A DNA stretch of 64,000 nt from Patescibacteria group bacterium (GCA_038061225.1 JBBTZT010000003.1:257515-321514); one strand, 5' to 3'. Shown: positions 2,258 to 31,416, counted from the stretch's first letter. Numbers and translations: made by a program. The notes: generated by a model not told the origin, from the letters alone.

Positions 2258-2267
2258 CTTTTTAGTT

Positions 2268-3403: not shown

Positions 3404-3413
3404 TGACTAATGA

Positions 3414-3956: not shown

Positions 3957-3961
3957 ACTGT

Positions 3962-5029: not shown

Positions 5030-5115
5030 AACATGAATTACTTTAAATTAATATAGAACTCATGTCAATTCTATAAAAAACATTTCAAAAGTGGTATTAT
5101 TACTCTAATATACTG

Positions 5116-5187: not shown

Positions 5188-5194
5188 CAAAAAA

Positions 5195-5419
5195 ATGACT
5201 AAAAGAAAAAAAAGAGAAAAAGGAATTTTGTTAGAAGAACATCCTAATAGACCTGGGTATCCTGATCTGATTGGACACAGACAATTAAGAATAATGAAAA
5301 TGGGTGTGGTAGTTCGTGGTAAAGGTATTATTGAATCTTTGGAGAACAGATTAAAAAGATCAAAAAAAGAATTAGGTCTTGATGTAGCAGATGATAATTT
5401 TGGAGAAAGACGGATATAA
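5195..5419 (+). CDS. small basic hypothetical protein
   Basis: 74-aa ORF immediately 3' of tRNA-Val; no recognisable motif. Confidence 0.3.
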   Translation: MTKRKKREKGILLEEHPNRPGYPDLIGHRQLRIMKMGVVVRGKGIIESLENRLKRSKKELGLDVADDNFGERRI

Positions 5420-5426
5420 TTGATTA

Positions 5427-8067: not shown

Positions 8068-8114
8068 TACAACTATAGTATTTATATTTATTATTTCTTT
8101 GTCAATAGTTATAT

Positions 8115-15056: not shown

Positions 15057-15078
15057 TTAAAAATGGTATTATAAAAAC

Positions 15079-15780
15079 ATGTCATTGCTACCGTTTATAA
15101 AAGATGATGATTTTATATCAGAGGTAAAAAAAGTTTTAGAGGTGGATAAAAATGATTCAAGAAAAAACAAGTCAATAAGAAATTCTATAGACCCTTTTTC
15201 AGCAATATTTGATGCATCAATTCAAAGCATCCCGATTAATTTGTGGTTTGAACTTGAGGCTAGAAGACAATCTCAAAAAACCCTTCAAAATAAACTTGGA
15301 TTATTTCATCAGAATATATTAGGCCATGTAAGAGGGTGGATCAACTTAAATACTGGAAAGGTAGTTGATTTACTAAACACCAAAAAGAAGGTAATTGCTG
15401 AAGTTAAAAACAAATTTAACACAACTAAAGGTTCAGATAAAGTTCAAATTTATGATAACATCAAATTTTTATTAGATACAAAATACAAAGGATATGTTGG
15501 TTACTATGTTGAAGTGATACCACAAAATAAGAAAATGTACGATTCTGAATTTACTCCATCAGATAATAAGATCAAAAAAAGAAGACCAAGAAACAAAAAT
15601 ATTAGAATCATAGACGGATCCAGTTTCTATGACTTAGCTACAGGATATAATGACTCATTGTTTATGTTGTATATGGCAATACCAGAAGCTATTACAAAGA
15701 TATTAAAAATTCCTGTAATGAATATTCTAGGCAAGAACGAAATGCTAGAACTTTATAAAGAGGTATATCAAACAAAGTAA
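15079..15780 (+). CDS. putative Type II restriction endonuclease (PD-(D/E)XK-like)
   Basis: 233-aa ORF immediately upstream of a C5-MTase gene. Candidate catalytic motif VVDLL-x9-AEVKNK (D...ExK). No database match could be run. Confidence 0.45.
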   Translation: MSLLPFIKDDDFISEVKKVLEVDKNDSRKNKSIRNSIDPFSAIFDASIQSIPINLWFELEARRQSQKTLQNKLGLFHQNILGHVRGWINLNTGKVVDLLNTKKKVIAEVKNKFNTTKGSDKVQIYDNIKFLLDTKYKGYVGYYVEVIPQNKKMYDSEFTPSDNKIKKRRPRNKNIRIIDGSSFYDLATGYNDSLFMLYMAIPEAITKILKIPVMNILGKNEMLELYKEVYQTK

Positions 15781-15818
15781 CCATTGCATAATGTATTGGT
15801 TATTGATATATTTTATTC

Positions 15819-17114
15819 ATGGATAACTTGCTCACTGTTTCAGATGCGGCCGAATTGGTTGGAGTTTCTACCGATACAATTCGAAGATGGGAAAAGGTTG
15901 GACTTCTTAAATCTCATCGTTCGGAACATAATTATCGTCTTTTCAATTTTGAGGAAATTCAAAGAGTTAGAAATAAAATTAATGGTAGTGATCAGATTAA
16001 CAATTATAAAATTCTCAAAAGCAACAAAACGACTAAATATACAACAATAGAATTGTTTACAGGAGCTGGAGGTACAGCTTTAGGGTTAGAAAATGCAGGA
16101 TTAAAACATTTATTAAATGTTGAATTCGATAAAGATGCAATAAACACAATAAAAAATAATAAACCTGAATGGAACTTAATTGGTAACGATATTTCAGAAG
16201 TTGATTTTAATTCATGGAAAAATAAAGTTGACGTAGTCGAGGGTGGATTTCCATGCCAGTCTTTTAGTTACGCAGGAAAAGGGAAAGGATTCGGAGATAC
16301 TCGTGGTACTTTGTTTTTTGAATTCGCCCGTTGTGTTAAAGAAACAATGCCAAAAATAGCAATTGGTGAAAATGTTAAAGGTTTATTAAGACATGATAAT
16401 GGTAAAACATTATCTACTATGGTTAAAAAACTTCAAGATATTGGTTACAAAGTTGGTTATAAAGTTTTAAGGTCTCAATACCATGATGTACCACAGAAAC
16501 GAGAGAGATTGATAATTATTGGGATAAGAAATGATTTAAATATACCAATGTTAGTTCCAAGAGAAAAAGACTATTACATTTCTATAAAAGAGGCACTAAA
16601 AAATGTTCCTTTATCAAAAGGACAAAATTATCCTGAAAAGAAGAGAAAGGTTTTAGATTTGGTTCCTCCCGGAGGTTGTTGGAGAAATTTACCGCTTGAT
16701 ATTCAAAGAGAATATATGGGCGCTAGTTTTTATTTAGGTGGGGGTAAAACAGGAATGGCAAGAAGACTGTCTTTTGATGAGCCATCATTAACGCTTACTT
16801 GTTCTCCTGCCCAGAAGCAAACTGAAAGATGTCATCCCGTTGAAACAAGACCTTTTACCGTGCGTGAATATGCCAGAATACAAACTTTTCCTGACGATTG
16901 GGAATTTTGTGGTTCTTTGACTTCCCAGTATAAACAAATTGGAAATGCAGTCCCTGTTAACTTAGGTTTTCATATTGGGGAGGCTATAATTGCTATGTTA
17001 CAAAATAAGTATGATTTAAATGATATGGAAATAATCGAGCCTGTAATTTTAGAAAATAATGAAAATCATATATTAAGTAACAACTTTTTATATGTCCAAG
17101 AAAACATATTTTAA
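15819..17114 (+). CDS. DNA (cytosine-5)-methyltransferase with an N-terminal MerR-like HTH domain
   Basis: Motif I ELFTGAGGTALG, motif IV GGFPCQSFS, ENV, motif X QIGNAVPV. The N-terminus LLTVSDAAELVGVSTDTIRRWEKVGLL is a MerR/excisionase-type HTH. Confidence 0.9.
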   Translation: MDNLLTVSDAAELVGVSTDTIRRWEKVGLLKSHRSEHNYRLFNFEEIQRVRNKINGSDQINNYKILKSNKTTKYTTIELFTGAGGTALGLENAGLKHLLNVEFDKDAINTIKNNKPEWNLIGNDISEVDFNSWKNKVDVVEGGFPCQSFSYAGKGKGFGDTRGTLFFEFARCVKETMPKIAIGENVKGLLRHDNGKTLSTMVKKLQDIGYKVGYKVLRSQYHDVPQKRERLIIIGIRNDLNIPMLVPREKDYYISIKEALKNVPLSKGQNYPEKKRKVLDLVPPGGCWRNLPLDIQREYMGASFYLGGGKTGMARRLSFDEPSLTLTCSPAQKQTERCHPVETRPFTVREYARIQTFPDDWEFCGSLTSQYKQIGNAVPVNLGFHIGEAIIAMLQNKYDLNDMEIIEPVILENNENHILSNNFLYVQENIF

Positions 17115-17395: not shown

Positions 17396-17510
17396 AAAGA
17401 TCATTATTAAATTTAATTCAATCCTATATTTAAATAAAATAAGATGTTAAGATTAGAATTGCGTCTCAGAAGAAATTAAGGATTAGATTGTACTATTTTC
17501 CATAATTTTG

Positions 17511-17581
17511 AGCTGGTGAGTGTAATCGAAACACTGTCGATGGTTTACGATACCACTGCTCTACCACTGAGCTACACCAGC
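17511..17581 (-). tRNA. tRNA-Thr (anticodon CGU)
   Basis: The reverse complement reads GCTGGTGTAGCTCAGTGGTAGAGCAGTGGTATCGTAAACCATCGACAGTGTTTCGATTACACTCACCAGC. Anticodon loop ATCGTAA; T-loop TTCGATT. Confidence 0.85.
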
Positions 17582-18553: not shown

Positions 18554-19585
18554 ATGTCAAACGTAATAAAATGCAAGAATTGTGGAACTGAAATAGATGT
18601 TGGAGAGCAATTGGCTCATGATATTAAAGAATCTGTTGTTCTTGAGGAAAGAAAAAAAGCACAAGAAGAAGTAGATATTGTACGACGAAAGTTCAATACT
18701 GATATGGGCAAGCTTCTTGACGAAATTAAAACTTTGCGTGAGAAAGATCAAATGAGAGATTTGGAAATGAAGAAAAAACTTCTAGAAAGTGAGGAAACAA
18801 TTAAAAATGATTTAAAAATTAAACTTGAAGATGAACATAGATTAAAAGATTTGGAAAATTATAAGAAAATGCAAGATGTTTTGAAAGCTAATGAAGAATT
18901 AAAAAGAAAATTAGAACAAGGATCACAACAAACACAAGGTGAAGTATTAGAACTAACTATAGAGAAAAAATTACGTCAGGATTATCCACAAGATGAAATA
19001 AAAGAAGTTAAAAAGGGAGTAAAAGGAGCTGATGTTATCCAAATTGTTATTGATAAAAAAGGGCAAAAATGTGGAAGCTTACTTTGGGAATCAAAAAATG
19101 CTAAGTGGAGTGAAACATGGATAACAAAACTTAAAGAAGATCAAAGACAGGCCAAGGCAGACCTAGCTATACTTGTCTCAGTTGATTTGCCAGAAGACAT
19201 TAAAGAAAAAGGAATTGGTTATAAAAACGGTATTTGGATATGTGGTGCAACTAATTTTAATCAACTGGCAATGTCTTTAAGATTTAATTTAGTTAATATT
19301 TACTATGAAAAACAAAACGCTGTAGGAGTAGATGAGAAAATGAAAGTACTATATGAGTATTTAACAGGAAATGAATTTAAACATAGAGTAGAGGGAATTG
19401 TGGAAGCTTTTGGAACACTTCAGGACGACATCGAAAGAGAAAAAAGGTGGTTTAGTGCAAAATGGGCAAGACAAGAAAAAGAAATTAGAAAAGTAATTGA
19501 TCATACACATGGAATGTATGGTGATCTTCAAGGTGTTACAGGTAGGGCACTTCCTGAAATAAAATCATTGGAATTAGAAGAATAA
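18554..19585 (+). CDS. DUF2130-like protein: N-terminal CxxC, long coiled coil, C-terminal restriction-endonuclease-like (PD-(D/E)XK-like) domain
   Basis: CKNCGTEI at the N-terminus; an E/K-rich heptad region about 100 aa long; C-terminal GADVIQIV...LLWESKNAKWS (D...ExK-like). Assigned to DUF2130 from memory of the family architecture. Confidence 0.45.
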   Translation: MSNVIKCKNCGTEIDVGEQLAHDIKESVVLEERKKAQEEVDIVRRKFNTDMGKLLDEIKTLREKDQMRDLEMKKKLLESEETIKNDLKIKLEDEHRLKDLENYKKMQDVLKANEELKRKLEQGSQQTQGEVLELTIEKKLRQDYPQDEIKEVKKGVKGADVIQIVIDKKGQKCGSLLWESKNAKWSETWITKLKEDQRQAKADLAILVSVDLPEDIKEKGIGYKNGIWICGATNFNQLAMSLRFNLVNIYYEKQNAVGVDEKMKVLYEYLTGNEFKHRVEGIVEAFGTLQDDIEREKRWFSAKWARQEKEIRKVIDHTHGMYGDLQGVTGRALPEIKSLELEE

Positions 19586-19627
19586 ACAACCTCTTGACTT
19601 CGGTTTTGATTGGGGTTAAATTAAATT

Positions 19628-20624
19628 ATGACAACTTCTAAAATTAAAATTCAAAATAATACTTTCAAAGAAGTGATGATTTACCAGACTCCAGACAAGA
19701 GTGTAAAAGTCGAGATTTATTTAAAGGATGAAAATTTATGGCTAACTCAGATTAGAATAGCTGAATTGTTTGGCGTTGAAAGAAGTGTTGTCACAAAGCA
19801 TTTAAAGAATATTTTTTATGAACGAGAGTTAGATTTAAAAAGCAATGTGCAAAAAATGCACATTGCTAAGTCTGATAAACCAGTTAAATACTATAATCTT
19901 AATGTAATTATTGCTGTTGGGTATAGAATCAACTCAATTAAGGCCACAAAATTTCGTATTTGGGCTACTCAAGTTTTAAAGGAATACATAGGACGATGAA
20001 AGATTAAAAGATCCTGATCAAATATTTGGTAAGGATTACTTTGAAGAGCAGCTCGCGAGAATCAGAAATATCCGTTCAAGCGAGAGAAGGATGTATCAAA
20101 AGATTACTGATATCTATGCAGAATGCAGTGCCGACTATGATCCAAATAGTGATATGACCAAAGACTTTTTTGCTACAGTTCAGAATAAACTGCATTTTGC
20201 TATTACTGGTCAAACCGCCGCAGAAATTATAGCTAAGAGAATTGGTAATAAAAAGTTAAATATGGGATTAACAAATTGGAAAAATGGACCAAAAGGCAAA
20301 ATTAGAGAAACTGATGTGGTAATTGCAAAGAATTATTTAAATGAAATAGAGCTGGATAAATTAAACAGAATTGTAACTGTTTACTTAGATTATGCAGATA
20401 TGATGGCAAAAGATAGGATTGTTATATATATGGAAGATTGGATCAAGAAACTGGATGCTTTTCTTAAATTTAGTGAGAAGGACATACTTTCAGATAATGG
20501 AAAAGTAAGTTATGAAGTTGCAGAACAATTGGCATTGGGAGAATATAAAAAGTTTAGAATTAAACAAGACAAAAATTATATCTCAGATTTTGATAGAGAA
20601 GTTAAAAAACTTTTAAAAAAATAG
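19628..20624 (+). pseudogene. rhuM: rhuM-family (virulence RhuM) gene disrupted by a frameshifting deletion
   Basis: ORF 19628-19999 carries the RhuM N-terminal part (...QIRIAELFGVERSVVTKHLKNIF...). ORF 20091-20624 carries the C-terminal part (YQKITDIYA...). The +1-frame translation of the gap (DDERLKDPDQIFGKDYFEEQLARIRNIRSSERR) is also RhuM. About 14 nt encoding IKGFVL appear to be missing at about 19990. Confidence 0.75.
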
Positions 20625-21064
20625 CAAAAACTAGAACTGGGATTCGAAAACTTGTTCTGTCTTATAACTCCTAACTTTAAGAATTTGAAGTGTTGGGTCA
20701 GTAACTTTATAGTCCGAGTTTTCTGCAACAAACAACCCGATTCCAATGTGCGGAATATAACCCAAATCTTTTCTGAAAAATGGAGCCAATATACCAGTAT
20801 AAAGCTTATCGTGAAGGGCAATCACAATGATCCCAAGATTTATCTAATCCTAGTAAATGAATTTTAAAAGACCTCTCATCTTTAACTTAATTATCGGTTT
20901 ATGTAAGTTTCTACTAATTTAGCCTTGAAGTTTCCTAATTCCTCATAATAGGTCACTTTTACCCCTTATTTACCTTCTTTTAACTATTGTTAACTAAGCA
21001 TTTTAGCTGTACAATTATGCATAATAGGAATTATCTAAAAGTAATACTTTTTTGACGACCAAAA

Positions 21065-21259
21065 ATGCCAAAAGACGATAAAAGGTTGCCGGAACTATTA
21101 ACCATTGCGCAGGTGGCGAAAATTCTTAATGTCCACCCGACTACGCTTAGGCGGTGGGATAAGAAAGGAAAGTTAAAAGCCATTCGTGTAGGCACGAGAC
21201 GCGGTGTTGGCGAAAGACGCTATCACCGAGAGGATATTATAAAGTTAATAACAAAGTAA
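21065..21259 (+). CDS. excisionase-family HTH DNA-binding protein (Xis/AlpA-like)
   Basis: LLTIAQVAKILNVHPTTLRRWDKKGKLKAIRVGTRRGVGERRYHREDI matches the excisionase-family HTH consensus. Confidence 0.75.
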   Translation: MPKDDKRLPELLTIAQVAKILNVHPTTLRRWDKKGKLKAIRVGTRRGVGERRYHREDIIKLITK

Positions 21260-21263
21260 ATTT

Positions 21264-24200
21264 ATGTATACGCCGAATAAATCAATTATTGATAATGATA
21301 AAATTAAGCTCTTTACAGAGTTAAAGAACATTCTTAATGACCAGCCTAGCAACTTTGACGTAGCTACCGGCTATTTTAATGTTGGAGGCTTCGAGTTAGT
21401 CGCCCAAGAAATAAAAAATGTCAAAAAGTTCAGATTATTACTTGGAAAGTCACCAAGTGTTGATGACAAGTTGGTACCGGATTTATTCGAGCCAGTAGCG
21501 TTTTATAAGACCAATCTTAAAGAAGACCTCGAAAACGAAGAATTTACCTCTAAAAAGTCTCAGGCGGTCAAAAACCTCATAGCTTTTCTTGAAAAGCAGG
21601 ATGTTGAAGTTAAACTACTGGAAAAACCCTTTCTTCATGGCAAGGCTTACATTTTTAATGATCTGGCTATCATTGGCTCTAGCAACTTCACTTATTCGGG
21701 ACTTGCCGGCAATACAGAATTAAACGCAGTGCTCATTGATCCGCACCCCGTTTATCTTAAAAAAGAATGGTTTGATAAGTTTTGGGAGCAAGCCCGCGAT
21801 TTTAAGCAAGAGCTTATTGAAATCCTCAAAAGCTCAAAGTTAGGTACAAGGGAATACTCGCCTTACGAAGTTTATATTAAAGCGCTCTATGAACTTCAAA
21901 AGAAAGAGCTGGAACCTACGGAAGCCCCCAGAAACGAGCGTTTGCCCGAAAGCGTAGTAGATTTAGCAACATTTCAAGAAGACGCGGTTAATCGTGTGTA
22001 CTCATCGCTCACCAACTATAATGGCGTCTTAGTTGCTGATTCTGTCGGTCTTGGTAAAACATGGATTGCAAAAAAAGTCATTGAGGACTTTGGTTTTTAT
22101 AGAAGACGTAAGTTCTTGGTTATATGTCCAGCTTCACTTCACCGAATGTGGCAAGCTGAGCTTAAAGACTTGGGTGTTTCAGAAAATATCATCCATCAAG
22201 AGTATTTAGGAGGAGAAGGCTTGGACTTTGAAGATTTAGAGAAACGCCATCAGATAAAGTTTGCCGATATCTCCCTCATTGTAATTGACGAGTCTCACAA
22301 CTTCAGAAATCCCATATCTAACCGCTATGAAAACCTTTTTTCACTTATAGAAAAAATTCGCTCATTCGGTAAAACCCCAAAGGTAATTTTAATGACTGCA
22401 ACTCCAATGAATAACACTATTTGGGACTTTTACTTTCAACTTATGCTTATTGGTCAAAACAATAAGCGCATGTTTATTAAGCAAGGAATTTTTGACTTGC
22501 AAAAAGAGTTTAGCAAAGCCCAGAAAGGAAATACCAACCACATTAACGATGTTTTGCAATCAATCTCCATTCGTAGAACACGCCAATATATTAGAGAAAA
22601 CTACAAAGATGCAAAATTCAAAACAGAGACAGGGGAATACAAAAAGATTGAATTCCCAGATAGAAAACTGGAAGAAGTACACTATTCTCTTGATAAAGCC
22701 TATGATGGCCTCTATGCCGAGATTTCGCGCAAGATAGAAGCCGATTTGACTCTTGCTTACTACAAACTCTCCGAGTACAAAGTATCCGAGAAAAAAGATT
22801 TAGTAGAAGTCCACAGAGGACAGGCTTTAGCCGGTATCTTCCAAACAGTTCTTCTAAAAAGATTGGAAAGTTCAGTCGAGGCATTTCGCAAAAGCGTTAA
22901 AAGCCACAAAGAGTTCTTGGGTGAATTTAAAAATGTTGTCCAGAAAGGGAAAATACTACGCAAAAAGTTCTTCCTAAAATACATAAACAGTTTAGATGAA
23001 TCAATCGAGGATATAGATGGCTTGGGAGACTTTGGTAATAGCTTGGAAGATATAGACCTTAAAGACTACGACAAAGAGAAGATGTTTGCTGATATTGACC
23101 AAGATATTAAGGTTTTTTCAACTATTTATGAAGATATAAAAAATATAGATGAAAGCCAAGATGCAAAACTTATTAAATTTAAGGAACATTTACTCAAAAA
23201 TCTTAAAGAGGAAAAAGCCGTTATCTTCTCCTACTACTCCGACACTGTTAAGTATGTCGCTCAAGCATTAGATAAAGATGAGGATTTTAAGAAAAAGTAT
23301 GGTAAGAAGATAGCTTTCATTACTGGTGCTAATTCTTCAAACGAGCGCCAGACTATTATTGAAGATTTCTTAAACGGCAAGACAAATGTTGTTATTTCAA
23401 CCGATATTCTCTCCGAAGGTCAAAACTTGCAACAAGCAAAAACAGTTACTAATTACGATTTACATTGGAATCCGGTGAGAATGATTCAAAGAGCGGGAAG
23501 AATTGACCGTATTGGTACCCCTTTCAAAGAAATTATTATCTATAACTTTTACCCAGAGGATGAGTTGGAATCGCTCCTTGATCTAGTAGAAACCTTACAG
23601 AAAAAAATTATGATGATTAACGATACCATTGGTCTTGACGCCTCTGTTTTAGGTGAGCAGATAAACCCTAAAGTATTTGGTATTATACGGGACTTAAAAA
23701 GTGAGGAAGAAGAAACGAAAGATAAGACAATGGAACTTTTGGAAGCCGAGCAGTTCGGAGGCGGAGAACTTTTCTTCCAGCCCCTGAAAAACTTTGGACT
23801 GGATAAACTCCCCGCGTTTGCCGATGGTTTGCCTCACGGAATACAAAGTGGACTAAAGAAGGGTTATAGAGGCATTTTCTTTTATTTCCAGTATGCAGAG
23901 GAGTATCACTTCTGGTACCTGTACGATTTAATTGACAAAGAATTTAAAACCAACAAGACAGAAATTTTAGACTTTATAGCCTGCAAGCAAGTTGAGCGTC
24001 GAGTTGTCCCCGAAGATTACGATGTTTATTCAGCTCACGATGAAGTAAAAAATCGTATTGCAGAGCTTTTTAATGAAACAAGGTTTGAGGTTGAAATGCG
24101 TACTCCCTCCGGTAAGAAAGAAAAGTTTTTAATTGATATGCGGGATGAATTGGAACATATAAAAACAGAGGTTTTGTTTGAAGAAGATCAAAAGGAGAGA

Positions 24201-24431
24201 ACAAAAATAGAAGAAATTGTTACTAAGATAAACGAGGTCAACTTTACTAAAAAGCGTTTGCAGTATTTAAGGCGTTCTTGGCAGGCTTACAAAAAATCAC
24301 ATCAGAACTGGCGAAAACTGGTTGCAGAGCTTGGTGACTTTTTAGCGGACAAGGTTGAAACACCAACAGAAATTATTGAGGAATTTAATGACAAGAAACT
24401 CAAACTTATTTGCGTTGATTATATTTCATGA
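21264..24431 (+). CDS. fusion of an N-terminal PLD-family (HKD) nuclease domain and an SNF2-family helicase
   Basis: PLD motif FLHGKAYIFNDLAIIGSSNFT (HxK..D..GSxN). SNF2 motifs LVADSVGLGKTW (I), VIDESHNFRN (II), LMTATPMNN (III), ISTDILSEGQNLQ (V) and NPVRMIQRAGRIDRIG (VI). Confidence 0.85.
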   Translation: MYTPNKSIIDNDKIKLFTELKNILNDQPSNFDVATGYFNVGGFELVAQEIKNVKKFRLLLGKSPSVDDKLVPDLFEPVAFYKTNLKEDLENEEFTSKKSQAVKNLIAFLEKQDVEVKLLEKPFLHGKAYIFNDLAIIGSSNFTYSGLAGNTELNAVLIDPHPVYLKKEWFDKFWEQARDFKQELIEILKSSKLGTREYSPYEVYIKALYELQKKELEPTEAPRNERLPESVVDLATFQEDAVNRVYSSLTNYNGVLVADSVGLGKTWIAKKVIEDFGFYRRRKFLVICPASLHRMWQAELKDLGVSENIIHQEYLGGEGLDFEDLEKRHQIKFADISLIVIDESHNFRNPISNRYENLFSLIEKIRSFGKTPKVILMTATPMNNTIWDFYFQLMLIGQNNKRMFIKQGIFDLQKEFSKAQKGNTNHINDVLQSISIRRTRQYIRENYKDAKFKTETGEYKKIEFPDRKLEEVHYSLDKAYDGLYAEISRKIEADLTLAYYKLSEYKVSEKKDLVEVHRGQALAGIFQTVLLKRLESSVEAFRKSVKSHKEFLGEFKNVVQKGKILRKKFFLKYINSLDESIEDIDGLGDFGNSLEDIDLKDYDKEKMFADIDQDIKVFSTIYEDIKNIDESQDAKLIKFKEHLLKNLKEEKAVIFSYYSDTVKYVAQALDKDEDFKKKYGKKIAFITGANSSNERQTIIEDFLNGKTNVVISTDILSEGQNLQQAKTVTNYDLHWNPVRMIQRAGRIDRIGTPFKEIIIYNFYPEDELESLLDLVETLQKKIMMINDTIGLDASVLGEQINPKVFGIIRDLKSEEEETKDKTMELLEAEQFGGGELFFQPLKNFGLDKLPAFADGLPHGIQSGLKKGYRGIFFYFQYAEEYHFWYLYDLIDKEFKTNKTEILDFIACKQVERRVVPEDYDVYSAHDEVKNRIAELFNETRFEVEMRTPSGKKEKFLIDMRDELEHIKTEVLFEEDQKERTKIEEIVTKINEVNFTKKRLQYLRRSWQAYKKSHQNWRKLVAELGDFLADKVETPTEIIEEFNDKKLKLICVDYIS

Positions 24432-24434
24432 GTT

Positions 24435-27400
24435 ATGGGAACAAATATAGACTTAGACGAATTTTTGCCAACAATGGATGCACCGGACAAGGTGTATCAA
24501 CTTTTCGAATCTCTTGGTTTTAAGGTACTCGATTCTCACCTCAAGACAAACCCGTCAGTTTATAACTTACCGGTCAAAGAAGCCGCATTAGTTGAGAAGA
24601 TTTATGCAGTCTCAAATTATGACCGCCGTTTTCAGATTCTTTTATTTAAACTCAAAGAGGAAAACAAAGAAGCAATCCGTACAATACCGGAGAAAATTTT
24701 ACGCGAGGTAGACTTCCCTTTCATTATCTTTACCCCAGATTTTAAGACTTACACTTTTACTCTTGTTGAAAAAGTCCGTGAGGGACCCGGAGAGTTCAAA
24801 CGCAAACTCACAAAACTTGTAGTTGATAGCAGTCAGCCCTATCACACGGACAAAGAAATACTAGGAAGCCTTGCGCTATCTGTTGATACCAAAAACCCCG
24901 TTGAGGTTTATAAAATGTTTCAAAGCGCTTTTAGCGTTGAGAAAGTCACTAAGAAATTCTTTACCGAATATCGGGAAGTTTTTGAAAGATTAGTAGGAGA
25001 AGTTACTAAGCAGAATAAGCACCTGAAATTTACGCTTTTTTCCAGAGATGCTTCTGTAGAAAACTTTGTCAAAATACTTTTAGGTCGTTTAATGTTTCTC
25101 TACTTTATACAAAAGAGGGGCTGGCTTAACTGCTTTGATGGTTGGGGTAGCGGAGATAAAAAGTTTCTCTATAATAAATTTCAAGAGGCAAAGAAAGAAA
25201 AGAAAAACTATTTTAAGGATTACCTCGAACCGCTTTTCTTTGACACTCTCAACAATCCCCGCCGCGATAAGCCAGATCAAGCAACACAGTTTGGCGGTAG
25301 AATCCCTTTCCTAAACGGAGGACTATTTGAACCAGAGTACGACTATCAAGATGTAAGAAATCACATACTTTTAGAAAACTCCACCTTTGATGATGTTTTC
25401 TCGGTTTTTGAGAAATATAACTTTACTGTTAAAGAGGATGAGCCGCTTGAAAAAGAAGTAGCCATTGACCCTGAAATGTTGGGTAAGGTTTTTGAAAATC
25501 TCTTGGAGGAAAACTTACGTAAAGGCAAGGGCACGTATTACACCCCTCGAGAAATCGTCCACTACATGTGCCATGAAAGCCTTATAAACTATCTGGCTTC
25601 CGAAGTTAGCCTAGATCAAGATGTGATAAGGAATTTCTTGGATCGTGAGCAGTCCCTAGAAAAGAAGGAAACTTTAAGTTCTGCTATAAGAGAGAAAGCA
25701 AAGGAAATAGACGAAAAATTAGCTGATATTAAGGTTTTAGACCCTGCCTGCGGTTCTGGCGCTTTCTTGGTTGGTATGCTCCACGAAGTTATAAATGCCC
25801 GCCTAAGTCTTAATCGGGAGCTTGGGCGCAGTCTCTCGGAGTATGAAGTTAAAAAAGCAACAATTCAAAATAATATCTATGGTGTAGATATTGACCCCGG
25901 AGCTTCTGAAATTGCCAAACTTCGTTTATGGTTGACACTTGTTGTTGACCACAATCTCTCCGAAATAGAACCGCTCCCTAATCTTGACTATAAAATTATG
26001 GTCGGTAATTCACTACTCGATGAATTTATGGGCGTAAAACTCTTTAATCCCGAGAACGCAAAAGCTCAAGCAAATGGTAAGAAAATGATTAGTCTTTTTG
26101 ACGAAGATTCACAAGTTTCACTCTTTGAAAATGATGATAAAAAAACAAGTGTCCTAAAAGCCTTGCAAGGGCTACATGCTTTATATTTCAAAGAGTCTGA
26201 CCCCGAAAAGAAGAAGCAAATTAGAACTCAAATAGACAAGATTGAGTTTGATCTTATCGAGGCAACTGTTAATGATGAAGTATCACAACTGGAAAGAAAA
26301 ACTAAAGGAATTGTTGAACCGTATTTGTCTCATGGTATAGGAATTCCAGCGAAAGAAGCGGAGAGAATTTCAAAACTAAGTTCTCAACAAGGACAGATTT
26401 TAGAAACTTTTAATGAGATAAAGAAAAGTAATGTTAAACCATTTTTCTTGTTTCAACTCCATTTCTCCGATGTTTTTGAAAAGAAAGGCGGGTTTGATAT
26501 TGTTATCGCAAACCCACCTTATATGAAAGAGAGAGATAATAAAAAGGTTTTTGAAATAGTCAATAATTCTAGTTTTGGTAAAAAGTATCATCAAGGGAAA
26601 ATGGATTACTGGTATTATTTCTTGCATAAAGCTATTGATATCACAAAAGATAACGGGTTCATCTCCTATATAACGTCTCGGTACTGGATAAATAGTTATG
26701 GTGCAAAAAAACTTATTGAAAGAGTTAATAAAGAGTTATCTTTTGTAAACTTCGTTGATATTGGTAAGTTGAAGGTATTTGATGAAGTAGCTGGCTACCA
26801 TATGATTGCTGTTTATAAAAAGACAGTAGATATTGATCTGTTTACTTATAAAAAACTTCAAAACGAAATTAGTGATATAAGTAAAAGTTCTAATACTGAA
26901 AACCTAGAAATAAAAACATTATCAAAGAAGGAAATATTTACTGATAATGACGAGATTATTTTGGAAACCGATGGTTTAAAATATGATAATGTTGTTTTAT
27001 TAGGTTCAATCGCAGATACCTCGGTTGGAGTTCAAGAATCCCCTGACAAAATTAATAGTAAGCTCCTTCTAAGTGCAAAGCGAACAGATATATCTGTTGG
27101 TGATGGTGTTTTTGTTTTATCGCAAAAAGAATTAGATAACCTACGGCTAAAAGAGATTGGCCGACTGCCAATAATTAAAAAATATTTAGACCCTAATGAT
27201 GTGTACCGTTATCGAGTTAGTTGGAAAAGTAAGTATCTCATTTATTCTGACAATAAAATTAAGGAGGACATTAAAAGTAACAAGGAATACATTAGTATCA
27301 AGAATCATTTAGACAAATTTAGAGAATTTATTTCCTCTTCAAACAAGCCTTACGGGTTACATAGATCACGCGACATAAAGTATTTTATAGAACCCAAGAT

Positions 27401-27827
27401 TATATTTAAAAATATGTTTATCATGCCCGATTTTACCTACGATGATAAAGGATACTTTTTTGGATTTTCTTTTTCTTCAATAATTCAAAAAGATAAAACT
27501 TTTGACTTGAAATACATTCTAGGTATTTTAAATTCAAAAGTTGCATTTAATTGGTTCCAAAAGAACGGAAAAAGAAGGGGTGCTGGGTTTGATATTGGTG
27601 TTGAAAAACTAAGGCTTTTTCCGATCAAGAAAATTACGCTCCAAGAACAAAAACCAATTATCGAAATTGTCGACAAACTTCTAGATATCACAAAAGATGG
27701 TGATTATTTACAAAACCCCACAAGGCAAACTCAAGTTAAAGACTACGAAAAGCAAATTGACCAGTTAGTTTATAAACTCTATGGCCTAACGCCGGAGGAA
27801 ATTTTAGTTGTGGAGGATCAAAAATGA
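24435..27827 (+). CDS. large gamma-class N6-adenine DNA methyltransferase with a C-terminal TRD-like region (type IIG/Eco57I-like, PglX/DrmMI-like)
   Basis: Motif I VLDPACGSGAFLVGM followed by motif IV VIANPPYMKE (gamma order). N-terminal helical region with ILLGRLMFLYFIQKRGWL. C-terminal YKLYGLTPEEILVVE, typical of the type IIG/PglX family. 1130 aa. Confidence 0.85.
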   Translation: MGTNIDLDEFLPTMDAPDKVYQLFESLGFKVLDSHLKTNPSVYNLPVKEAALVEKIYAVSNYDRRFQILLFKLKEENKEAIRTIPEKILREVDFPFIIFTPDFKTYTFTLVEKVREGPGEFKRKLTKLVVDSSQPYHTDKEILGSLALSVDTKNPVEVYKMFQSAFSVEKVTKKFFTEYREVFERLVGEVTKQNKHLKFTLFSRDASVENFVKILLGRLMFLYFIQKRGWLNCFDGWGSGDKKFLYNKFQEAKKEKKNYFKDYLEPLFFDTLNNPRRDKPDQATQFGGRIPFLNGGLFEPEYDYQDVRNHILLENSTFDDVFSVFEKYNFTVKEDEPLEKEVAIDPEMLGKVFENLLEENLRKGKGTYYTPREIVHYMCHESLINYLASEVSLDQDVIRNFLDREQSLEKKETLSSAIREKAKEIDEKLADIKVLDPACGSGAFLVGMLHEVINARLSLNRELGRSLSEYEVKKATIQNNIYGVDIDPGASEIAKLRLWLTLVVDHNLSEIEPLPNLDYKIMVGNSLLDEFMGVKLFNPENAKAQANGKKMISLFDEDSQVSLFENDDKKTSVLKALQGLHALYFKESDPEKKKQIRTQIDKIEFDLIEATVNDEVSQLERKTKGIVEPYLSHGIGIPAKEAERISKLSSQQGQILETFNEIKKSNVKPFFLFQLHFSDVFEKKGGFDIVIANPPYMKERDNKKVFEIVNNSSFGKKYHQGKMDYWYYFLHKAIDITKDNGFISYITSRYWINSYGAKKLIERVNKELSFVNFVDIGKLKVFDEVAGYHMIAVYKKTVDIDLFTYKKLQNEISDISKSSNTENLEIKTLSKKEIFTDNDEIILETDGLKYDNVVLLGSIADTSVGVQESPDKINSKLLLSAKRTDISVGDGVFVLSQKELDNLRLKEIGRLPIIKKYLDPNDVYRYRVSWKSKYLIYSDNKIKEDIKSNKEYISIKNHLDKFREFISSSNKPYGLHRSRDIKYFIEPKIIFKNMFIMPDFTYDDKGYFFGFSFSSIIQKDKTFDLKYILGILNSKVAFNWFQKNGKRRGAGFDIGVEKLRLFPIKKITLQEQKPIIEIVDKLLDITKDGDYLQNPTRQTQVKDYEKQIDQLVYKLYGLTPEEILVVEDQK

Positions 27828-28855
27828 AAGCAGCAGAAAAACCAAAATATGTTCAAGAAGCACGGAAGTTACTAACTTCAATTGACATTAACCATTTGAT
27901 TTCAAACCCTAATGACCTCAGGGAAATAGACAAAATTAATCGTCTAGTAGCTATTTTTACTAACTTTTCTTCCAATGATGGTCAAGAATTGAAAAGACTC
28001 TTTCAAGAATTTCAAGAGACAGGAAGACGTAGTACTAGTTCGGGAACTATCAAAAATAGAGCCGTAGATGTAATCCAATTTATTGGCCAGAAGATTGAAG
28101 AAATGGATATTTATGTTATAGAACCTGATGAGAAACCACTATTAGAGACGCTGGAAAAATTAAGAAAAATTCAAAAACTAATTCAGGAAGGTTTAGCTCG
28201 GAGTGATGAAAAAACACAAATTATACGGGAGGCTCAAGAAAAATCTAAGTTGTTTAAGGACGATATCTACAAAAGGAAAGCGGAAAAGCTTTCAAAACAG
28301 ACCGTTTGGTCAAAGCAGAGTCATGATGGTTTCGTGGCCGCAGATGAATATGGCCAATTAACTCCTTGGATAGAATTGCTTGAAGATTATTTGGGAGAAG
28401 AAAAGCTCTTAATAAGAGAAAAGGTTATTGAAGATACAACCCCGTATGAAGGAAGAAAATTTCTGAGGTCTATCTTAGAGAAGGCTAACAATGAAGTGGT
28501 TGTGGTTGATAATTTTCTTTCCCACGAGATTTTGGCAATTATTGAACCATATGTATTAAAGGGGGTAGGCTTTAGGTTACTGACACGACAGGCGCACAAT
28601 AGTAAATTTAGGAGTTTTACAGCTGATTATAAAGTCTTTAGACTTCAGCACCAAAATAAAATAGCCGCCAAGGAAAACAAAAAATGCCATGACCGCTTTG
28701 TGATGGTTGATGGTCATATCATATATCATTTCGGAGCCAGCTTAGTTGAATTGGGAAATACCTTATCTGTGGCTCATTTAATTGAAGATCAAAAAGAGAA
28801 AGATAAACTGTTATCTAAATTTACCGATTGGTGGGATACGGGAAAGGACGTTTAA
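27824..28855 (+). CDS. hypothetical protein with a C-terminal degenerate PLD-like (HxRxxxxD...GAS) domain
   Basis: C-terminal HDRFVMVDGHIIYHFGASLVELGN aligns with HxKx4Dx6GSxN but has K->R. Preceded by VVVVDNFLSHEILAIIE. The N-terminal 200 aa are helical and unknown. Its start overlaps the MTase stop by 4 nt. Confidence 0.45.
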   Translation: MKAAEKPKYVQEARKLLTSIDINHLISNPNDLREIDKINRLVAIFTNFSSNDGQELKRLFQEFQETGRRSTSSGTIKNRAVDVIQFIGQKIEEMDIYVIEPDEKPLLETLEKLRKIQKLIQEGLARSDEKTQIIREAQEKSKLFKDDIYKRKAEKLSKQTVWSKQSHDGFVAADEYGQLTPWIELLEDYLGEEKLLIREKVIEDTTPYEGRKFLRSILEKANNEVVVVDNFLSHEILAIIEPYVLKGVGFRLLTRQAHNSKFRSFTADYKVFRLQHQNKIAAKENKKCHDRFVMVDGHIIYHFGASLVELGNTLSVAHLIEDQKEKDKLLSKFTDWWDTGKDV

Positions 28856-28867
28856 GTTTTAATAATC

Positions 28868-30313
28868 ATGGATATTACAGATATCACTGGCTATACATTA
28901 AAAAATCTTAGCAAAATTAACATTGTTTTAGGGAAAAATGGTTGCGGTAAAAGCACACTGTTACGATCAGTTGAACAAGGTTTATCTTCGCAATCGCAGT
29001 CGTATGGAAAAACAAAATACATAACACCGGAAAGAGGAGGATCTCTTATTTATGAAGCTGGTATTGAACAGAGTTTAACAACCGATATAAATTGGCTTTC
29101 AGGTCAAAGGAGAAAAAATCAAGCTGTTGGTTTTAGACAACAAAGCGTAGCTCAGTATCGCAGACTTGAAACTTTGGTATTAAGAGAAATAGAAAAGGAA
29201 AAACGACAACAAAACGATTACACCTTCGACATTTATGTTAATAAAATCAACTCTTTGCTTGACAATATTGAAATAAAAAGACATGATATGACTTTCAAAA
29301 TATACCATAGAGGAACAATCAATGAATTAGGGGCAGAAGTAATCAGCAGTGGCGAAAGCGAACTGATTTCCTTGGGTATTGAATGTTTAATTTTTGGCAA
29401 AGAGTGTATTCCGGACAAAGAAAATATTTTATTTTTAGATGAGCCAGACGTACATTTACACCCAGATTTACAGGTTCGTTTAATGAATTTCCTAGAAGGT
29501 TTGGTTTCGGATAGTAACTTCAAAGTTTTAATTGCCACACACAGTACTGCTATTTTGGGAGCGTTGGAAACTTACACTGATACTCACTTGGCGTTTATGT
29601 CCTTTGAGCAGAAAGAGCTAAACTTTAGAGAAATTTCAGCAGTTTATAGAAAAGTTCTGCCCGTTTTTGGAGCACACCCCTTGTCTAATATTTTCAACGA
29701 AGCACCAATCTTACTTGTTGAAGGTGAGGATGACGAAAGAATTTGGCAACAAGCTGTCCGATCTTCTAATGGCACTATTAAATTATATCCCTGTTCTGTA
29801 GATAGTGTGAGTAATATAAACGATTTTGAACAGGAAGCAAAAGAGATTATTCAATCTGTTTATGACAAAGCCAAAGGTTATTCATTGAGAGATAAGGACA
29901 ATAACACTGAAGAAATCAATGATCTGCCGCCGATAATCAGAATGAGACTAGCATGCAGAAACTCGGAAAACCTTTTGCTTACGGACGAGGTACTTGGAGC
30001 ACTTAATATAACATGGGATCAACTTAAAGAGCGTATTGATATTTGGTTGAGTACCAATACACAACATCCTCACTTTTCGGTTATGAATGGGTTTAAGGAA
30101 GGCGGATACGATAGAAGAAACTTTGATATTAAAGAAGTGCGTAACGATTTAATGGGTGTTGTTGGAAGCGCAAAACCTTGGGAAGTTGTAGTGGGTCAAT
30201 CAATTTCAAGTCTGACTTGGGATGACAGTTCTAATTTTGAGGAAGATGGAAAAATTCTATCCTTTCTTGGACGAAAGATTACAGAAAATCTTATCCCTAA
30301 ATCGAGTAGATGA
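28868..30313 (+). CDS. OLD-family ATP-dependent endonuclease (AAA_21/ABC-type ATPase + TOPRIM)
   Basis: Walker A GKNGCGKSTLL; signature-like ISSGESEL; Walker B ILFLDEPDVHLHPD; TOPRIM-like ILLVEGEDDERIW with downstream acidic residues (VDSVSN). Confidence 0.75.
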   Translation: MDITDITGYTLKNLSKINIVLGKNGCGKSTLLRSVEQGLSSQSQSYGKTKYITPERGGSLIYEAGIEQSLTTDINWLSGQRRKNQAVGFRQQSVAQYRRLETLVLREIEKEKRQQNDYTFDIYVNKINSLLDNIEIKRHDMTFKIYHRGTINELGAEVISSGESELISLGIECLIFGKECIPDKENILFLDEPDVHLHPDLQVRLMNFLEGLVSDSNFKVLIATHSTAILGALETYTDTHLAFMSFEQKELNFREISAVYRKVLPVFGAHPLSNIFNEAPILLVEGEDDERIWQQAVRSSNGTIKLYPCSVDSVSNINDFEQEAKEIIQSVYDKAKGYSLRDKDNNTEEINDLPPIIRMRLACRNSENLLLTDEVLGALNITWDQLKERIDIWLSTNTQHPHFSVMNGFKEGGYDRRNFDIKEVRNDLMGVVGSAKPWEVVVGQSISSLTWDDSSNFEEDGKILSFLGRKITENLIPKSSR

Positions 30314-30358
30314 CATAAGGTTAAAGTAAAAGGGTTAAGGTTATTAACAAATTAGTAA

Positions 30359-31006
30359 ATGAATAACTTATTTATTTTCCAGTTACCTATAGATTTAGCC
30401 TCATCACTTACTGGAGGTGCTATTGGGTTAATATTAGCTTTTGGACTTTACCTTTTTGATAAGTCAATTAACCCCGACCTAGAAATACAGATAGCCGATC
30501 CGTCAAAACTATCATTGGCTCAAGGTGAATTTAAGTCTCTAAATTTAAAAATAATTAACAAAAAGAGAGACGGCATTTTACGATTTTTGAATAGATCAGC
30601 AACTCAAGTTAAGGTATTTCTTTACTTTTCAGACTTTTCTTCAAGAGTGCTTATGAATACAGTGATAGCTAGGTGGAACAATAGTCGAGAACCGCTAACT
30701 CCGGATTATAAAAATGTTGATCTTGGACTTGCTCTTACACACCCTAGAGAGGTTCTCGTACCTGGTGATGAAAATGAAATCTCTGTGGCTATTCGGAAAA
30801 AAGATAATAGATACTGCTTCCCTTTCAGCAACGAAAGCTACATATATCAAAGTAAAGACTTTGAGGTTCCTGGTTGGAAAATTGAAGATGATAAATTTGT
30901 CGTTACTGTGCGCATACAGTCAGCTGAAGTTGATAAAATGGGTGGCGTGTTTATTGTGCTAAATAAAAGTACATTAGAGCAGTTTAAGATCGAAAAAATA
31001 GGATAA
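30359..31006 (+). CDS. hypothetical membrane-anchored protein (single N-terminal TM)
   Basis: 215 aa; TM at about 17-33 (LTGGAIGLILAFGLYLF); no motif. Lies 45 bp downstream of the OLD-family gene. Confidence 0.4.
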   Translation: MNNLFIFQLPIDLASSLTGGAIGLILAFGLYLFDKSINPDLEIQIADPSKLSLAQGEFKSLNLKIINKKRDGILRFLNRSATQVKVFLYFSDFSSRVLMNTVIARWNNSREPLTPDYKNVDLGLALTHPREVLVPGDENEISVAIRKKDNRYCFPFSNESYIYQSKDFEVPGWKIEDDKFVVTVRIQSAEVDKMGGVFIVLNKSTLEQFKIEKIG

Positions 31007-31041
31007 TACTTTGGGATTATAAATTTTTGAATCATATTTAA

Positions 31042-31302
31042 ATGAAACGAATTGATGCATACGCACTCGCTAGATTTCTTATATTAGTTGCCTTGCTTAT
31101 TGGTGTCATCTATACGGGTTCTAAAATTGACACTCTTAGCAAGCGACTAGAAAGAATTGAGGCAAAACTTGGTGGTCCCGAAAAAATCGGTTGTAATGAG
31201 AAGGATTCTATCGAGAAAGTTCGCCAGTCTGTTGTCCGGATTGTAGGCGGAGAGGGCGAAGGTTCTGGTTTATCACCGTATGGAGCAGTGGACCGGATTT
31301 GA
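31042..31302 (+). CDS. small membrane protein; possible N-terminal remnant of a trypsin-like (HtrA-type) protease
   Basis: TM helix, then ...VRQSVVRIVGGEGEGSGL, resembling the start of an S1C protease domain. The ORF's last ~22 nt (including its stop codon) overlap the tRNA-Gly 3' end. Confidence 0.3.
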   Translation: MKRIDAYALARFLILVALLIGVIYTGSKIDTLSKRLERIEAKLGGPEKIGCNEKDSIEKVRQSVVRIVGGEGEGSGLSPYGAVDRI

Positions 31303-31393: not shown

Positions 31394-31416
31394 TTATCGC
31401 TGAACTACCACTGCTG
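31394..31416. repeat. partial direct repeat of the tRNA-Gly 5' end (17 nt identical: GCAGTGGTAGTTCAGCG), about 40 bp upstream of the tRNA
   Basis: cgctgaactaccactgc occurs at 31339-31355 (in the tRNA) and again at 31397-31413. Confidence 0.6.

Follow-up and report, generated by a model that had tools for sequence, protein, structure and literature searches.

Introduction

Type ISP restriction-modification (R-M) enzymes act on asymmetric, hemimethylated sites, and CglI and NgoAVII keep the phospholipase D (PLD) and helicase parts as separate proteins and use C5 methylases. Fusions of an HKD phosphoesterase with a SWI2/SNF2 protein have been attributed to R-M systems of bacteria (PMC3417536, 2012, citing Iyer et al., 2006; PMC2292703), and pairs of an SNF2 helicase and a PglX-like methylase occur inside class 1 DISARM, BREX-3 and ARMADA II (10.1101/2021.12.28.474362; PMC12458937). 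Here we analyze a 64,000-nucleotide stretch of DNA from a Patescibacteria group bacterium (GCA_038061225.1 JBBTZT010000003.1:257515-321514, called the window below), in which a gene for a PLD-SNF2 helicase-nuclease is followed 3 nt later by a gene for a gamma-class N6-adenine methyltransferase (MTase) with a target recognition domain (TRD). The literature that we searched gave no name and no experimental test for such a pair.

MANTIS, also listed as Gao_RL/Gao_29 or the 'Type-2 BREX-related system' (MtsA-MtsB-MtsC-MtsD), combines a DUF499 AAA+ ATPase, a DUF3780 protein, an alpha-class methylase and an HKD effector of helicase superfamily 2 (SF2) (PMC12839542; 10.64898/2026.09.23.753747). The effector, MtsD, is a SauUSI-like dimer with one PLD site that is directed by the methylase and restricts phages and plasmids (bioRxiv 10.64898/2026.09.23.753747); restriction requires all four proteins and favors inverted sites, and cleavage has yet to be reconstituted (PMC12839542; 10.64898/2026.09.23.753747). 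MmeI homologues without the PD-ExK nuclease, flanked by a helicase (YeeB) and a GIY-YIG protein (YeeC), were described by Morgan et al. (PMC2731913, 2009), together with the proposal that their altered N-terminus docks the helicase and the nuclease in a Type I-like system with single-strand modification (PMC2731913). DnmA (YeeA) of Bacillus subtilis methylates GACGAG (PMC7261158, PMC9973331), and yeeAB protects Vibrio crassostreae (10.1101/2021.05.05.442762). Defences that combine methylation with a helicase-nuclease (DISARM, BREX-3, ARMADA, MANTIS) are being studied actively, and the hand-over of an unmodified site from the methylase to the motor-nuclease is an open question of the field, for which the picture from MANTIS is complicated by the AAA+ loader.

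Results

The conserved unit is a pair of genes

The PLD-SNF2 and MTase genes (21264-27827) form the conserved unit of the cluster. Their features are as follows.

21264-24431, + strand: PLD(HKD)-SNF2 helicase-nuclease, 1055 aa (Pfam, PADLOC); presumed restriction subunit
21429-21785, + strand: PLD domain, aa 56-174, with HxK..GSSN (aa 125-141) at 21636-21686
aa 234-445 and aa 639-751 of the 1055-aa protein, + strand: SNF2/ResIII domain and Helicase_C (Pfam)
22047-22061, + strand: Walker A motif GLGKT of the 1055-aa protein
22287-22298, + strand: DESH motif of the 1055-aa protein
23487-23510, + strand: motif VI, QRAGRIDR, of the 1055-aa protein
23751-24428, + strand: conserved C-terminal region, aa 830-1055 (226 residues; homologue alignment)
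24435-27827, + strand: gamma-class N6-adenine MTase with TRD (MmeI/PglX/Eco57I type), 1130 aa; presumed specificity and modification subunit
24435-24884, + strand: N-terminal alpha/beta domain of the MTase, aa 1-150, without a nuclease site
24897-25424, + strand: helical spacer of MmeI/PglX type, about aa 155-330 (structural neighbours MmeI and PglX)
25737-25766, + strand: MTase motif I, aa 435-444
26511-26522, + strand: MTase motif NPPY, aa 693-696
26525-27747, + strand: exchangeable cassette, the C-terminal part of the MTase domain plus the TRD (blastn against contig L002)

Relatives of the helicase were found in at least 596 loci, in a scan with one genome per species, and 80 of these loci were fetched, from Asgard and other archaea, Chloroflexota, Planctomycetota, Cyanobacteria, Acidobacteriota and others. 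A search of the open reading frames (ORFs) of these loci with the window proteins placed a large methylase like that of the window on the same strand in 45 of the 80, and in 32 of the 42 loci that we call well flanked, with at least 5 kb on either side of the helicase (28 upstream and 4 downstream). Eight of the helicase/methylase junctions overlap or are at most 10 bp apart. In three more well-flanked loci a large NPPY ORF of another kind shares the strand of the helicase; it adjoins the helicase in two of them and lies about 1.9 kb upstream in L072, and with these three the loci that have any large same-strand methylase number 35 of 42 (83%). Co-occurrence of the two genes in other genomes, on which an initial annotation of this DNA had let its reading depend, is therefore borne out in bacterial and archaeal phyla.

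All-against-all clustering of the neighbours in the 80 loci gave no third conserved gene, and no DrmA/DrmB, DUF499, DUF3780 or PglZ; the clusters that did emerge were ABC transporters, histidine kinases and a Fic/RhuM-like group (4 loci). A larger conserved system was rejected as a candidate on this ground, that no further shared gene appeared. In the window itself, DUF1998, DUF499, DUF3780 and PglZ were all lacking from the proteins scanned, namely those of the ORFs at 15.8-36.2 kb, the called genes of a matching 23-kb contig stretch and ten of the largest ORFs elsewhere, in agreement with the earlier statement that DrmA and DrmB are missing.

The same pair is present in closer homologues (48-55% identity) and on plasmids of Deinococcus radiophilus, Thermococcus profundus and Planktothrix, where PGAP names the proteins 'helicase-related protein' or 'SNF2-related protein' and 'N-6 DNA methylase' or 'DNA methyltransferase'. 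The two genes are separated or flanked there by variable cargo, including HEPN/MNT, HicA, ParE, SIR2, DUF262, AbiEii and sigma-70-like genes. Small defence or toxin-antitoxin (TA) cargo of this kind resembles that embedded in Type I R-M operons.

Two side observations concern the pair. Lodged between or beside it in L007, L133, L134, L136, L137 and L138 we noted HEPN/MNT, HicA, ParE, PIN, AbiEii, DUF262/GmrSD, SIR2, an ImmA-like peptidase and Fic/RhuM. In L089, a 211-kb contig, the helicase-methylase pair (2023-8904) is broken into about ten short ORFs and the gene downstream, which carries the adaptor-like domain described below, is intact; either decay of the R-M core or long-read assembly errors would explain this.

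The helicase-nuclease

Pfam recognized PLDc_2 (4.5e-11), SNF2-rel_dom (1.9e-13), Helicase_C (6.3e-24) and also ResIII in the 1055-aa protein. HxK...GSSN, GLGKT, DESH and QRAGRIDR are invariant among 12 PLD-SNF2 homologues at 47-89% identity, and the C-terminal 226 aa are likewise conserved in them; this region gave noise alone with Pfam up to E 5 and nothing with PADLOC. The best PADLOC models for the protein were 'HKD+Snf2' (1.2e-55) and DrmD (8.5e-44). The designations 'C3a139 HKD+Snf2' (PADLOC) and NF042964 (NCBIfam) are used here as names only. The NCBIfam anti-phage PLD model, a possible counterpart of MtsD, scored 184 bits against a cut-off of 1100, and the NCBIfam model DISARM_DrmD 179.1 bits (1.5e-52) against a cut-off of 610.

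The methyltransferase and its N-terminal domain

The 1130-aa protein matched Eco57I, MmeI_Mtase, N6_Mtase and TaqI_C in Pfam, and it belongs to the gamma class because motif I precedes NPPY and the TRD is C-terminal. Its closest solved relatives by sequence, CamA, PglX/BrxX, BseCI and MmeI, are all distant (phmmer 2.7e-4 for MmeI); PglX models of NCBIfam reached 118 bits against a cut-off of 500, and some homologues carry the source label COG1002, which we take to be the YeeA family. PADLOC gave REase_MTase_IIG (1.2e-106) ahead of DrmMI (1.2e-28). Automated tools will therefore probably call the MTase gene alone a Type IIG enzyme and leave the nuclease unassigned, so that defence censuses probably mis-score loci of this kind.

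The MTase has no nuclease of its own, the PD-ExK domain of MmeI-type enzymes having been lost. In an alignment of 34 homologues, aa 1-150 hold no conserved acidic or lysine residue; no PD-ExK site is present, and six MTase N-termini compared with Pfam gave noise alone up to E 5, with no match to a nuclease model. That the MTase might be a complete Type IIG enzyme, which the initial annotation had named as the finding that would overturn its reading, is thus not what the N-terminus shows. In a predicted structure of aa 1-360 (pLDDT 81), an alpha/beta domain (aa 1-135) is followed by a helical region; Foldseek returned no match for this model.

The 150-aa N-terminal domain also heads the protein adjoining PLD-SNF2 in 22 further loci, with one additional weak internal match, in an iterative search limited to the fetched loci. 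These 22 include cyanobacterial sigma-70-like/P-loop proteins of 505-2395 aa in which no similarity to the MTase was detected. Because it recurs beside PLD-SNF2 in this way, the domain is the best candidate for the module that would couple its bearer to the motor-nuclease.

As a separate observation, the protein immediately upstream of PLD-SNF2 in the cyanobacterial loci L029, L030 and L048 is sigma-70-like and/or a P-loop protein and begins with the 150-aa domain. On a Planktothrix plasmid (L135), PGAP calls the gene in the same position (6426-7985) 'sigma-70 family RNA polymerase sigma factor'.

Exchange of the specificity cassette

L002 is a near-identical contig whose name has the well code H52 instead of H41. 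By blastn it is 99.15% identical to the window over 19601-26524 and 99.66% over 27748-31228, and the 1223 bp between (26525-27747) are without detectable similarity to the corresponding 993 bp of L002. The two MTases are identical over aa 1-696, save I689V, and in their last 25 residues; between these parts they are about 20% identical, as estimated from the alignment. This difference is a clean cassette replacement, the signature of an R-M specificity swap, and so the behaviour expected of an R-M specificity determinant under selection. It amounts to live turnover of specificity in an uncultured population of the candidate phyla radiation (CPR).

Apart from this, we noted two pairs of direct repeats of 23-24 nt, 83% identical, at 26490-26512/27585-27607 (spacing 1095 nt) and 26628-26651/27675-27698 (1047 nt), which encode GFDI... 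and ...DITKD. One copy lies just before the swapped cassette and the other three inside it, two of them near its 3' end. The repeats may be due to chance or may be recombination anchors.

Other genes of the cluster

All six ORFs of the cluster lie on the + strand. An ORF scan of the window reproduced their previously given positions, strands and spacing, and the distance of 3 nt was found to be that from the helicase stop to the MTase start. The gap between the first gene and the helicase is 4 nt, the MTase and 343-aa ORFs overlap by 4 nt (ATGA), and the following gaps are 12 nt and then 45 nt. The domain calls made earlier (excisionase-type helix-turn-helix (HTH), PLD-SNF2, gamma MTase, HxR PLD-like protein, OLD and a transmembrane (TM) segment) all agree with Pfam, PADLOC, motifs and hydropathy. 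The remaining features are these.

21065-21259, + strand: HTH protein of HTH_17/MerR/excisionase type, 64 aa (Pfam HTH_17 5.8e-13, MerR 1.4e-10; PADLOC mad1 6.5e-16)
27824-28855, + strand: accessory protein, 343 aa; four-helix bundle, helical linker and PLD fold
27824-28120, + strand: adaptor-like four-helix-bundle domain, aa 1-99, at the N-terminus of the 343-aa protein
28451-28852, + strand: PLD-fold domain, aa 210-343, with the HxR-variant motif CHDRFVMVD at 28685-28711
28868-30313, + strand: OLD-family ABC-ATPase with TOPRIM nuclease, 481 aa (Pfam AAA_15 1.7e-16, AAA_21 1.4e-15)
28931-28957, 29345-29362 and 29429-29449, + strand: Walker A, SSGESE and Walker B motifs of the OLD protein
29711-29737 and 29888-29905, + strand: TOPRIM motifs LLVEGEDDE and DKD of the 481-aa protein
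30359-31006, + strand: 215-aa protein with a single N-terminal hydrophobic segment, aa 13-33 (hydropathy scan)
31042-31302, + strand: 86-aa ORF, an N-terminal fragment (TM helix and start of the soluble part) of a gene of about 520 aa
31281-31355, - strand: tRNA-Gly(CCC) (ARAGORN), the right boundary of the variable region
17510-17581, - strand: tRNA-Thr(CGU) (ARAGORN), the left limit of a wider variable region (DUF2130, split RhuM, then the operon)

The HTH, OLD and membrane proteins belong to this lineage only, as far as the compared sequences indicate. The HTH, 343-aa, TM and 86-aa proteins had no homologue among the 80 distant loci, and OLD-like ATPases appeared there only as weak, non-adjacent matches in L065 and L081 (E ~1e-7). 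Homologues of the HTH protein stand upstream of R-M genes (Type I and Type III operons) in related CPR contigs (L100, L104, L108 and L121), and this protein is probably the transcriptional controller of the operon.

The 343-aa protein matched the PADLOC candidate family PDC-S05 (8.5e-21) and, weakly, the hidden Markov model (HMM) of DrmC (E 0.012, 13.4 bits), and its N-domain and linker gave noise alone with Pfam up to E 5. The motif C288-H-D-R-F...D296...G304.S306 is invariant. FAM83 and TrmB are examples of PLD folds that are non-catalytic.

Residues 1-99 are shared with other proteins at 65-76% identity (two BLASTP pairs), or 42-81% over the best local segments in a database search. Those proteins have a different common C-terminal domain of about 250 aa, with TIR_2 or Mrr_cat inserts by Pfam, and one member carries a cysteine motif that reads as HNH-like, by motif alone. 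Few proteins carry the adaptor domain: among 1.84 billion there are 28 clusters at 50% identity, and it is N-terminal save in two of them. We propose, from this distribution, that it could let PLD, TIR and Mrr effectors (and HNH-like ones, by motif only) ride behind ATP-dependent R-M operons.

In a survey of 45 loci related to the 343-aa family, the gene lies directly behind a PLD-SNF2 and methylase pair in 11 besides the window, and six more have the methylase alone upstream, mostly on truncated contigs. Elsewhere the family follows Type I genes (L104, L112) or genes like those of Type III, which are a methylase in L121, a Res-like helicase in L100 and both Mod and Res in L108. In other loci no R-M genes were detected upstream, and the gene stands right after the HTH (L109, L129) or, as a full-length copy, inside a resolvase-flanked element (L092, L093). 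This variety of operon settings means that the 343-aa protein is a modular accessory and not a core subunit. Clustering around the family gave no conserved downstream partner, and a fixed pairing with OLD was rejected for this reason. In groundwater and CPR contigs (loci L087-L132), we further observed that genes with the adaptor domain sit at the 3' end of operons of the Type I, Type III and PLD-SNF2/MTase kinds.

The 481-aa protein has the layout of the OLD family, an ABC ATPase followed by TOPRIM with the conserved Glu and DxD. PADLOC gave AriAB (2.6e-22), ATPase-Toprim_I-B (5.6e-19) and Old (2e-13); the TOPRIM call is drawn from the motifs and these profiles because Pfam gave no Toprim model. 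The gene is present in L001 and L002 only and missing from loci whose 343-aa protein is 70-80% identical. OLD-ABC modules have been described as back-up effectors of BREX loci (PMC12839542), and we propose that the nuclease here is an independent accessory, either a neighbouring defence gene or a back-up effector.

The 215-aa protein had no match in Pfam, PADLOC or NCBIfam, with noise alone from Pfam up to E 5; a weak homologue is encoded in L098, 1.6 kb downstream of the 343-aa homologue. The 86-aa ORF matches an intact 520-aa ORF of L124 (phmmer 2e-24), and in five loci the 343-aa family has related ORFs of about 520 aa downstream of it. In the window it overlaps the tRNA-Gly gene, where it is cut, and it marks the right edge of the island.

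Setting and island borders

The cluster is bracketed by the tRNA-Thr and tRNA-Gly genes. The flanks have a GC content of about 0.31 and most of 21-32 kb has 0.36-0.39, apart from a drop to 0.31-0.33 at 26-28 kb; this bears out the GC-richer island seen in the initial annotation. The cluster is a real feature and not due to chance. The rest of the window holds housekeeping genes (DnaE, UvrA, UvrB, GatA/B, PPDK and others), and the setting is therefore a CPR chromosome. The PLD-SNF2 protein is 100% identical on 15 metagenomic contigs, one of them of 157 kb with the name label 'Hain_H41', in which we read 'Hain' as the Hainich groundwater wells. The NCBI label of the protein is Patescibacteria group bacterium, and that of a relative at 89% is Candidatus Gottesmanbacteria.

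A 20-nt, 95% identical partial copy of the tRNA-Gly 5' end lies at 31395-31414, 40 nt past the tRNA. It was the sole find in a search for att-like direct repeats around the island, lies just outside it, and is not accompanied by an integrase. Together with the truncated 86-aa ORF it may be the scar of an insertion or rearrangement that formed the island edge. One plausible promoter-like site was found, at 20987-21015 before the HTH gene; the scan as a whole was uninformative (37 promoter-like sites vs 30 +/- 6 in shuffles, and 7 terminator-like sites vs 7.4).

Just upstream, at 14229-17114, lies a second R-M system with a PDDEXK_1 gene, an Eco47II-type endonuclease and a C5 cytosine methylase that has a MerR/HTH_17 domain fused at its N-terminus. 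The RhuM-family gene is split in the window into ORFs of 123 aa (19628-19999) and 177 aa (20091-20624) and intact, with 337 aa, in L002, L003 and L006, contigs that are otherwise 99% identical; the split reflects either recent pseudogene formation or a difference in sequencing. A gene for DUF2130 occurs close to the system in the window (18554-19585) and also in the unrelated L089 (13840-14526), which has a related operon, and may be a recurrent passenger of such islands.

Discussion

We favor the reading, which we hold to be fairly probable, that the core at 21264-27827 is a two-subunit ATP-dependent R-M system with the logic of Type I/ISP enzymes, and that the rest of the cluster consists of lineage-specific add-ons. 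It builds on the gene pair, its intact motifs, an MTase lacking a nuclease site and the cassette exchange, all of which are directly seen. By analogy with MmeI, PglX and DnmA, the MTase-TRD subunit would recognize a short, probably asymmetric site and methylate an adenine, so protecting the host DNA, and at an asymmetric site the modification would be a hemimethylation. At an unmethylated site the MTase would recruit or license PLD-SNF2, probably via its N-terminal domain. PLD-SNF2 would then move along the DNA with ATP, and cleavage would be by a PLD site probably formed through dimerization, as in MtsD, SauUSI and BfiI. Swapping of the TRD cassette, which the comparison of near-identical contigs shows, would alter the specificity. 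For protection of a methylated site from the partner nuclease, the property that defines an R-M system, this swap is the sole support, and an indirect one. The HTH protein probably controls transcription, and the 343-aa protein and the OLD nuclease would stand outside the conserved machine.

Several points weigh against this reading. The PLD-SNF2 and MTase family is known from genes alone, and its site, methylation and cleavage are predicted. Seven of the 42 well-flanked loci have no adjacent large methylase, and unrelated cargo of 0.5-6 kb parts the helicase and MTase genes in many loci. What speaks for a docking role of the MTase N-terminal domain is its co-occurrence with PLD-SNF2, and other partner MTases have a different N-terminus. 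The C-terminal 226 aa of the helicase could be a DNA reader of its own. The methylase of MANTIS binds DNA only with the AAA+ loader MtsA and with MtsB, neither of which is present here, and the coupling step could therefore differ from that of MANTIS. Finally, the DnmA-YeeB-YeeC cluster of B. subtilis methylates without restriction or phage defence (PMC7261158, PMC9973331).

The last of these points is also an argument for the first of four alternatives, taken here in the order in which they survive, namely that the MTase acts in practice as an orphan methylase with an epigenetic role, next to a helicase-nuclease that is inactive or otherwise employed; that restriction by this family is a prediction from genes is consistent with it too. 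We nevertheless regard it as unlikely, as the PLD and SNF2 motifs of the 1055-aa protein are invariant across phyla and the pair sits in defence islands beside TA, SIR2, GmrSD and AbiE genes. Moreover, turnover of the TRD cassette in near-identical strains fits selection on restriction specificity, and the fragmented copies in L089 show the appearance that decay would have.

Alternatively, all five genes could form one obligate multi-component system, a new DISARM-like class, which is close to the single functional unit of the initial annotation. The genes all run in one direction, either overlapping by 4 nt or 3-45 nt apart, the whole block is kept at 99% identity in L001 and L002, and the four-helix bundle and PLD of the 343-aa protein parallel DrmC (PMC12458937). 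Set against this, the 343-aa, OLD, TM and HTH genes are not conserved with the helicase in the 80 distant loci, OLD is missing even among close relatives by the 343-aa protein, members of the 343-aa family are found behind Type I and Type III operons as well, or where no R-M genes were detected, and the match to the DrmC HMM is no better than E 0.012. Neither OLD nor the 343-aa protein can be kept as a member of the unit on these results, and we find a five-gene system quite improbable.

It could also be that PLD-SNF2 is an autonomous, modification-dependent Type IV enzyme like SauUSI, which has the same PLD-SF2 layout and to which MtsD is structurally similar (10.64898/2026.09.23.753747), with the conserved C-terminal 226 aa as its reader domain and an unrelated, Type IIG-like MTase next to it. 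An adjacent same-strand methylase in 83% of well-flanked loci, with ORFs that often overlap or abut, would be unexpected for unrelated genes, and an MTase without a nuclease of its own would be left as an unexplained orphan; we consider this very unlikely. A decayed class 1 DISARM that kept DrmD and DrmMI and lost DrmA, DrmB and DrmC would account for the matches to these two models in PADLOC and to DISARM_DrmD in NCBIfam, and can be dismissed as most improbable of all, since the DrmD score is far below its cut-off (179 vs 610 bits), the generic IIG and HKD+Snf2 models fit better, no DUF1998 or second helicase is near in the window, the PLD is fused to SNF2 unlike in DrmD, and no DrmA/DrmB-like neighbour is conserved across the 80 loci, so that the pair stands by itself as a stable unit instead of being a remnant.

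Beyond the two-subunit R-M reading itself, we speculate, and hold it to be doubtful when all its parts are taken together, that the pair represents a distinct, widespread and minimal class of loader-less ATP-dependent restriction and that the 99-residue domain is a universal effector plug in CPR and groundwater bacteria. The rapidly evolving N-terminal domain of the MTase may be the coupling module, carried in some cyanobacterial loci by sigma-70-like/P-loop proteins. The plug, for its part, may attach HxR-PLD, TIR and Mrr effectors (HNH-like ones by motif only) to Type I, Type III or PLD-SNF2 machines, and the effectors so attached would possibly be a second, perhaps abortive layer triggered by the R-M complex.

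With two proteins, no loader and intact motifs, the pair is the smallest natural version of the methylase/motor-nuclease logic. As it consists of only two proteins and has hundreds of relatives, including some on plasmids of cultured Deinococcus, Thermococcus and cyanobacteria, it is a simpler system in which to address the coupling question. The adaptor-domain effector family is a separate lead on how accessory effectors are wired to R-M systems.

By criteria of membership the cluster falls outside DISARM, MANTIS, BREX, Type IIG and Type ISP. The DISARM-like character given to it at first holds as a resemblance, in that DrmD and DrmMI of class 1 DISARM resemble the SNF2 helicase and large N6-adenine MTase, a PLD protein is nearby, and the 343-aa protein shares the DrmC layout (PMC12458937). 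It does not hold as membership, as the DrmD score lies below its cut-off, the DrmC match reaches E 0.012, DrmA, DrmB/DUF1998 and a second helicase are absent from the scanned proteins, and DrmD and DrmMI rank below 'HKD+Snf2' and REase_MTase_IIG in PADLOC. BREX is set apart by the lack of any PglZ or BrxC/PglY match among the neighbours (Pfam, PADLOC, NCBIfam). SauUSI reads modified cytosines via its own TRD and has no partner methylase, unlike the window pair. Type IIG/IIL enzymes of the MmeI kind share with the window MTase a helical spacer, gamma methylase and TRD in one chain, but have the N-terminal PD-ExK endonuclease in that chain as well.

DnmA-YeeB-YeeC is likewise built on an MmeI-like gamma methylase-TRD protein without its own nuclease, adjoining an SF2 helicase. 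There the nuclease is a separate GIY-YIG/T5orf172 protein (YeeC), whereas here a PLD is fused to the helicase and no GIY-YIG or T5orf172 was found in any gene of 21065-31302 (Pfam, NCBIfam). The gene order also differs, with the helicase before the MTase in the window and some other loci, and DnmA, for which 38% identity to MmeI is reported, is far closer to MmeI than is the window MTase.

The effector of MANTIS likewise has an N-terminal HKD/PLD and an SF2/SNF2-type ATPase, a layout that the 1055-aa protein matches at the level of architecture only, and a separate adenine methylase likewise gives the specificity for both marking and restriction. MtsC, however, is of the alpha class with a central TRD and DPPY, whereas the window MTase is of the gamma class with a C-terminal TRD and an MmeI/PglX-like spacer, and the DUF499 loader (MtsA) and DUF3780 protein (MtsB) are neither in the scanned window proteins nor conserved in the 80 loci. 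Type ISP enzymes (LlaGI, LlaBIII), compared here by description and not by sequence, carry the same activities on one polypeptide, which has an SF2 translocase, a gamma adenine methylase, a TRD and a nuclease of the Mrr (PD-ExK) kind; here the activities are divided between two ORFs, a stop and 3 nt apart, and the nuclease is a PLD. The likeness to a Type ISP enzyme split into nuclease-translocase and MTase-TRD polypeptides, drawn in the initial annotation, was well seen. Its statement that the architecture is not a recognized one has to be given up, as the class of pair has already been seen in comparative genomics: HKD-SWI2/SNF2 fusions (PMC3417536), nuclease-less MmeI homologues by helicases (PMC2731913) had been noted, and the PLD-SF2 effector of MANTIS had been characterized (10.64898/2026.09.23.753747). 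Novelty lies above all in the candidate coupling domain, in the effector family built on the adaptor domain and in the exchange of the TRD within an uncultured CPR population. By analogy, the system would work most like a split Type ISP enzyme or a MANTIS without its loader.

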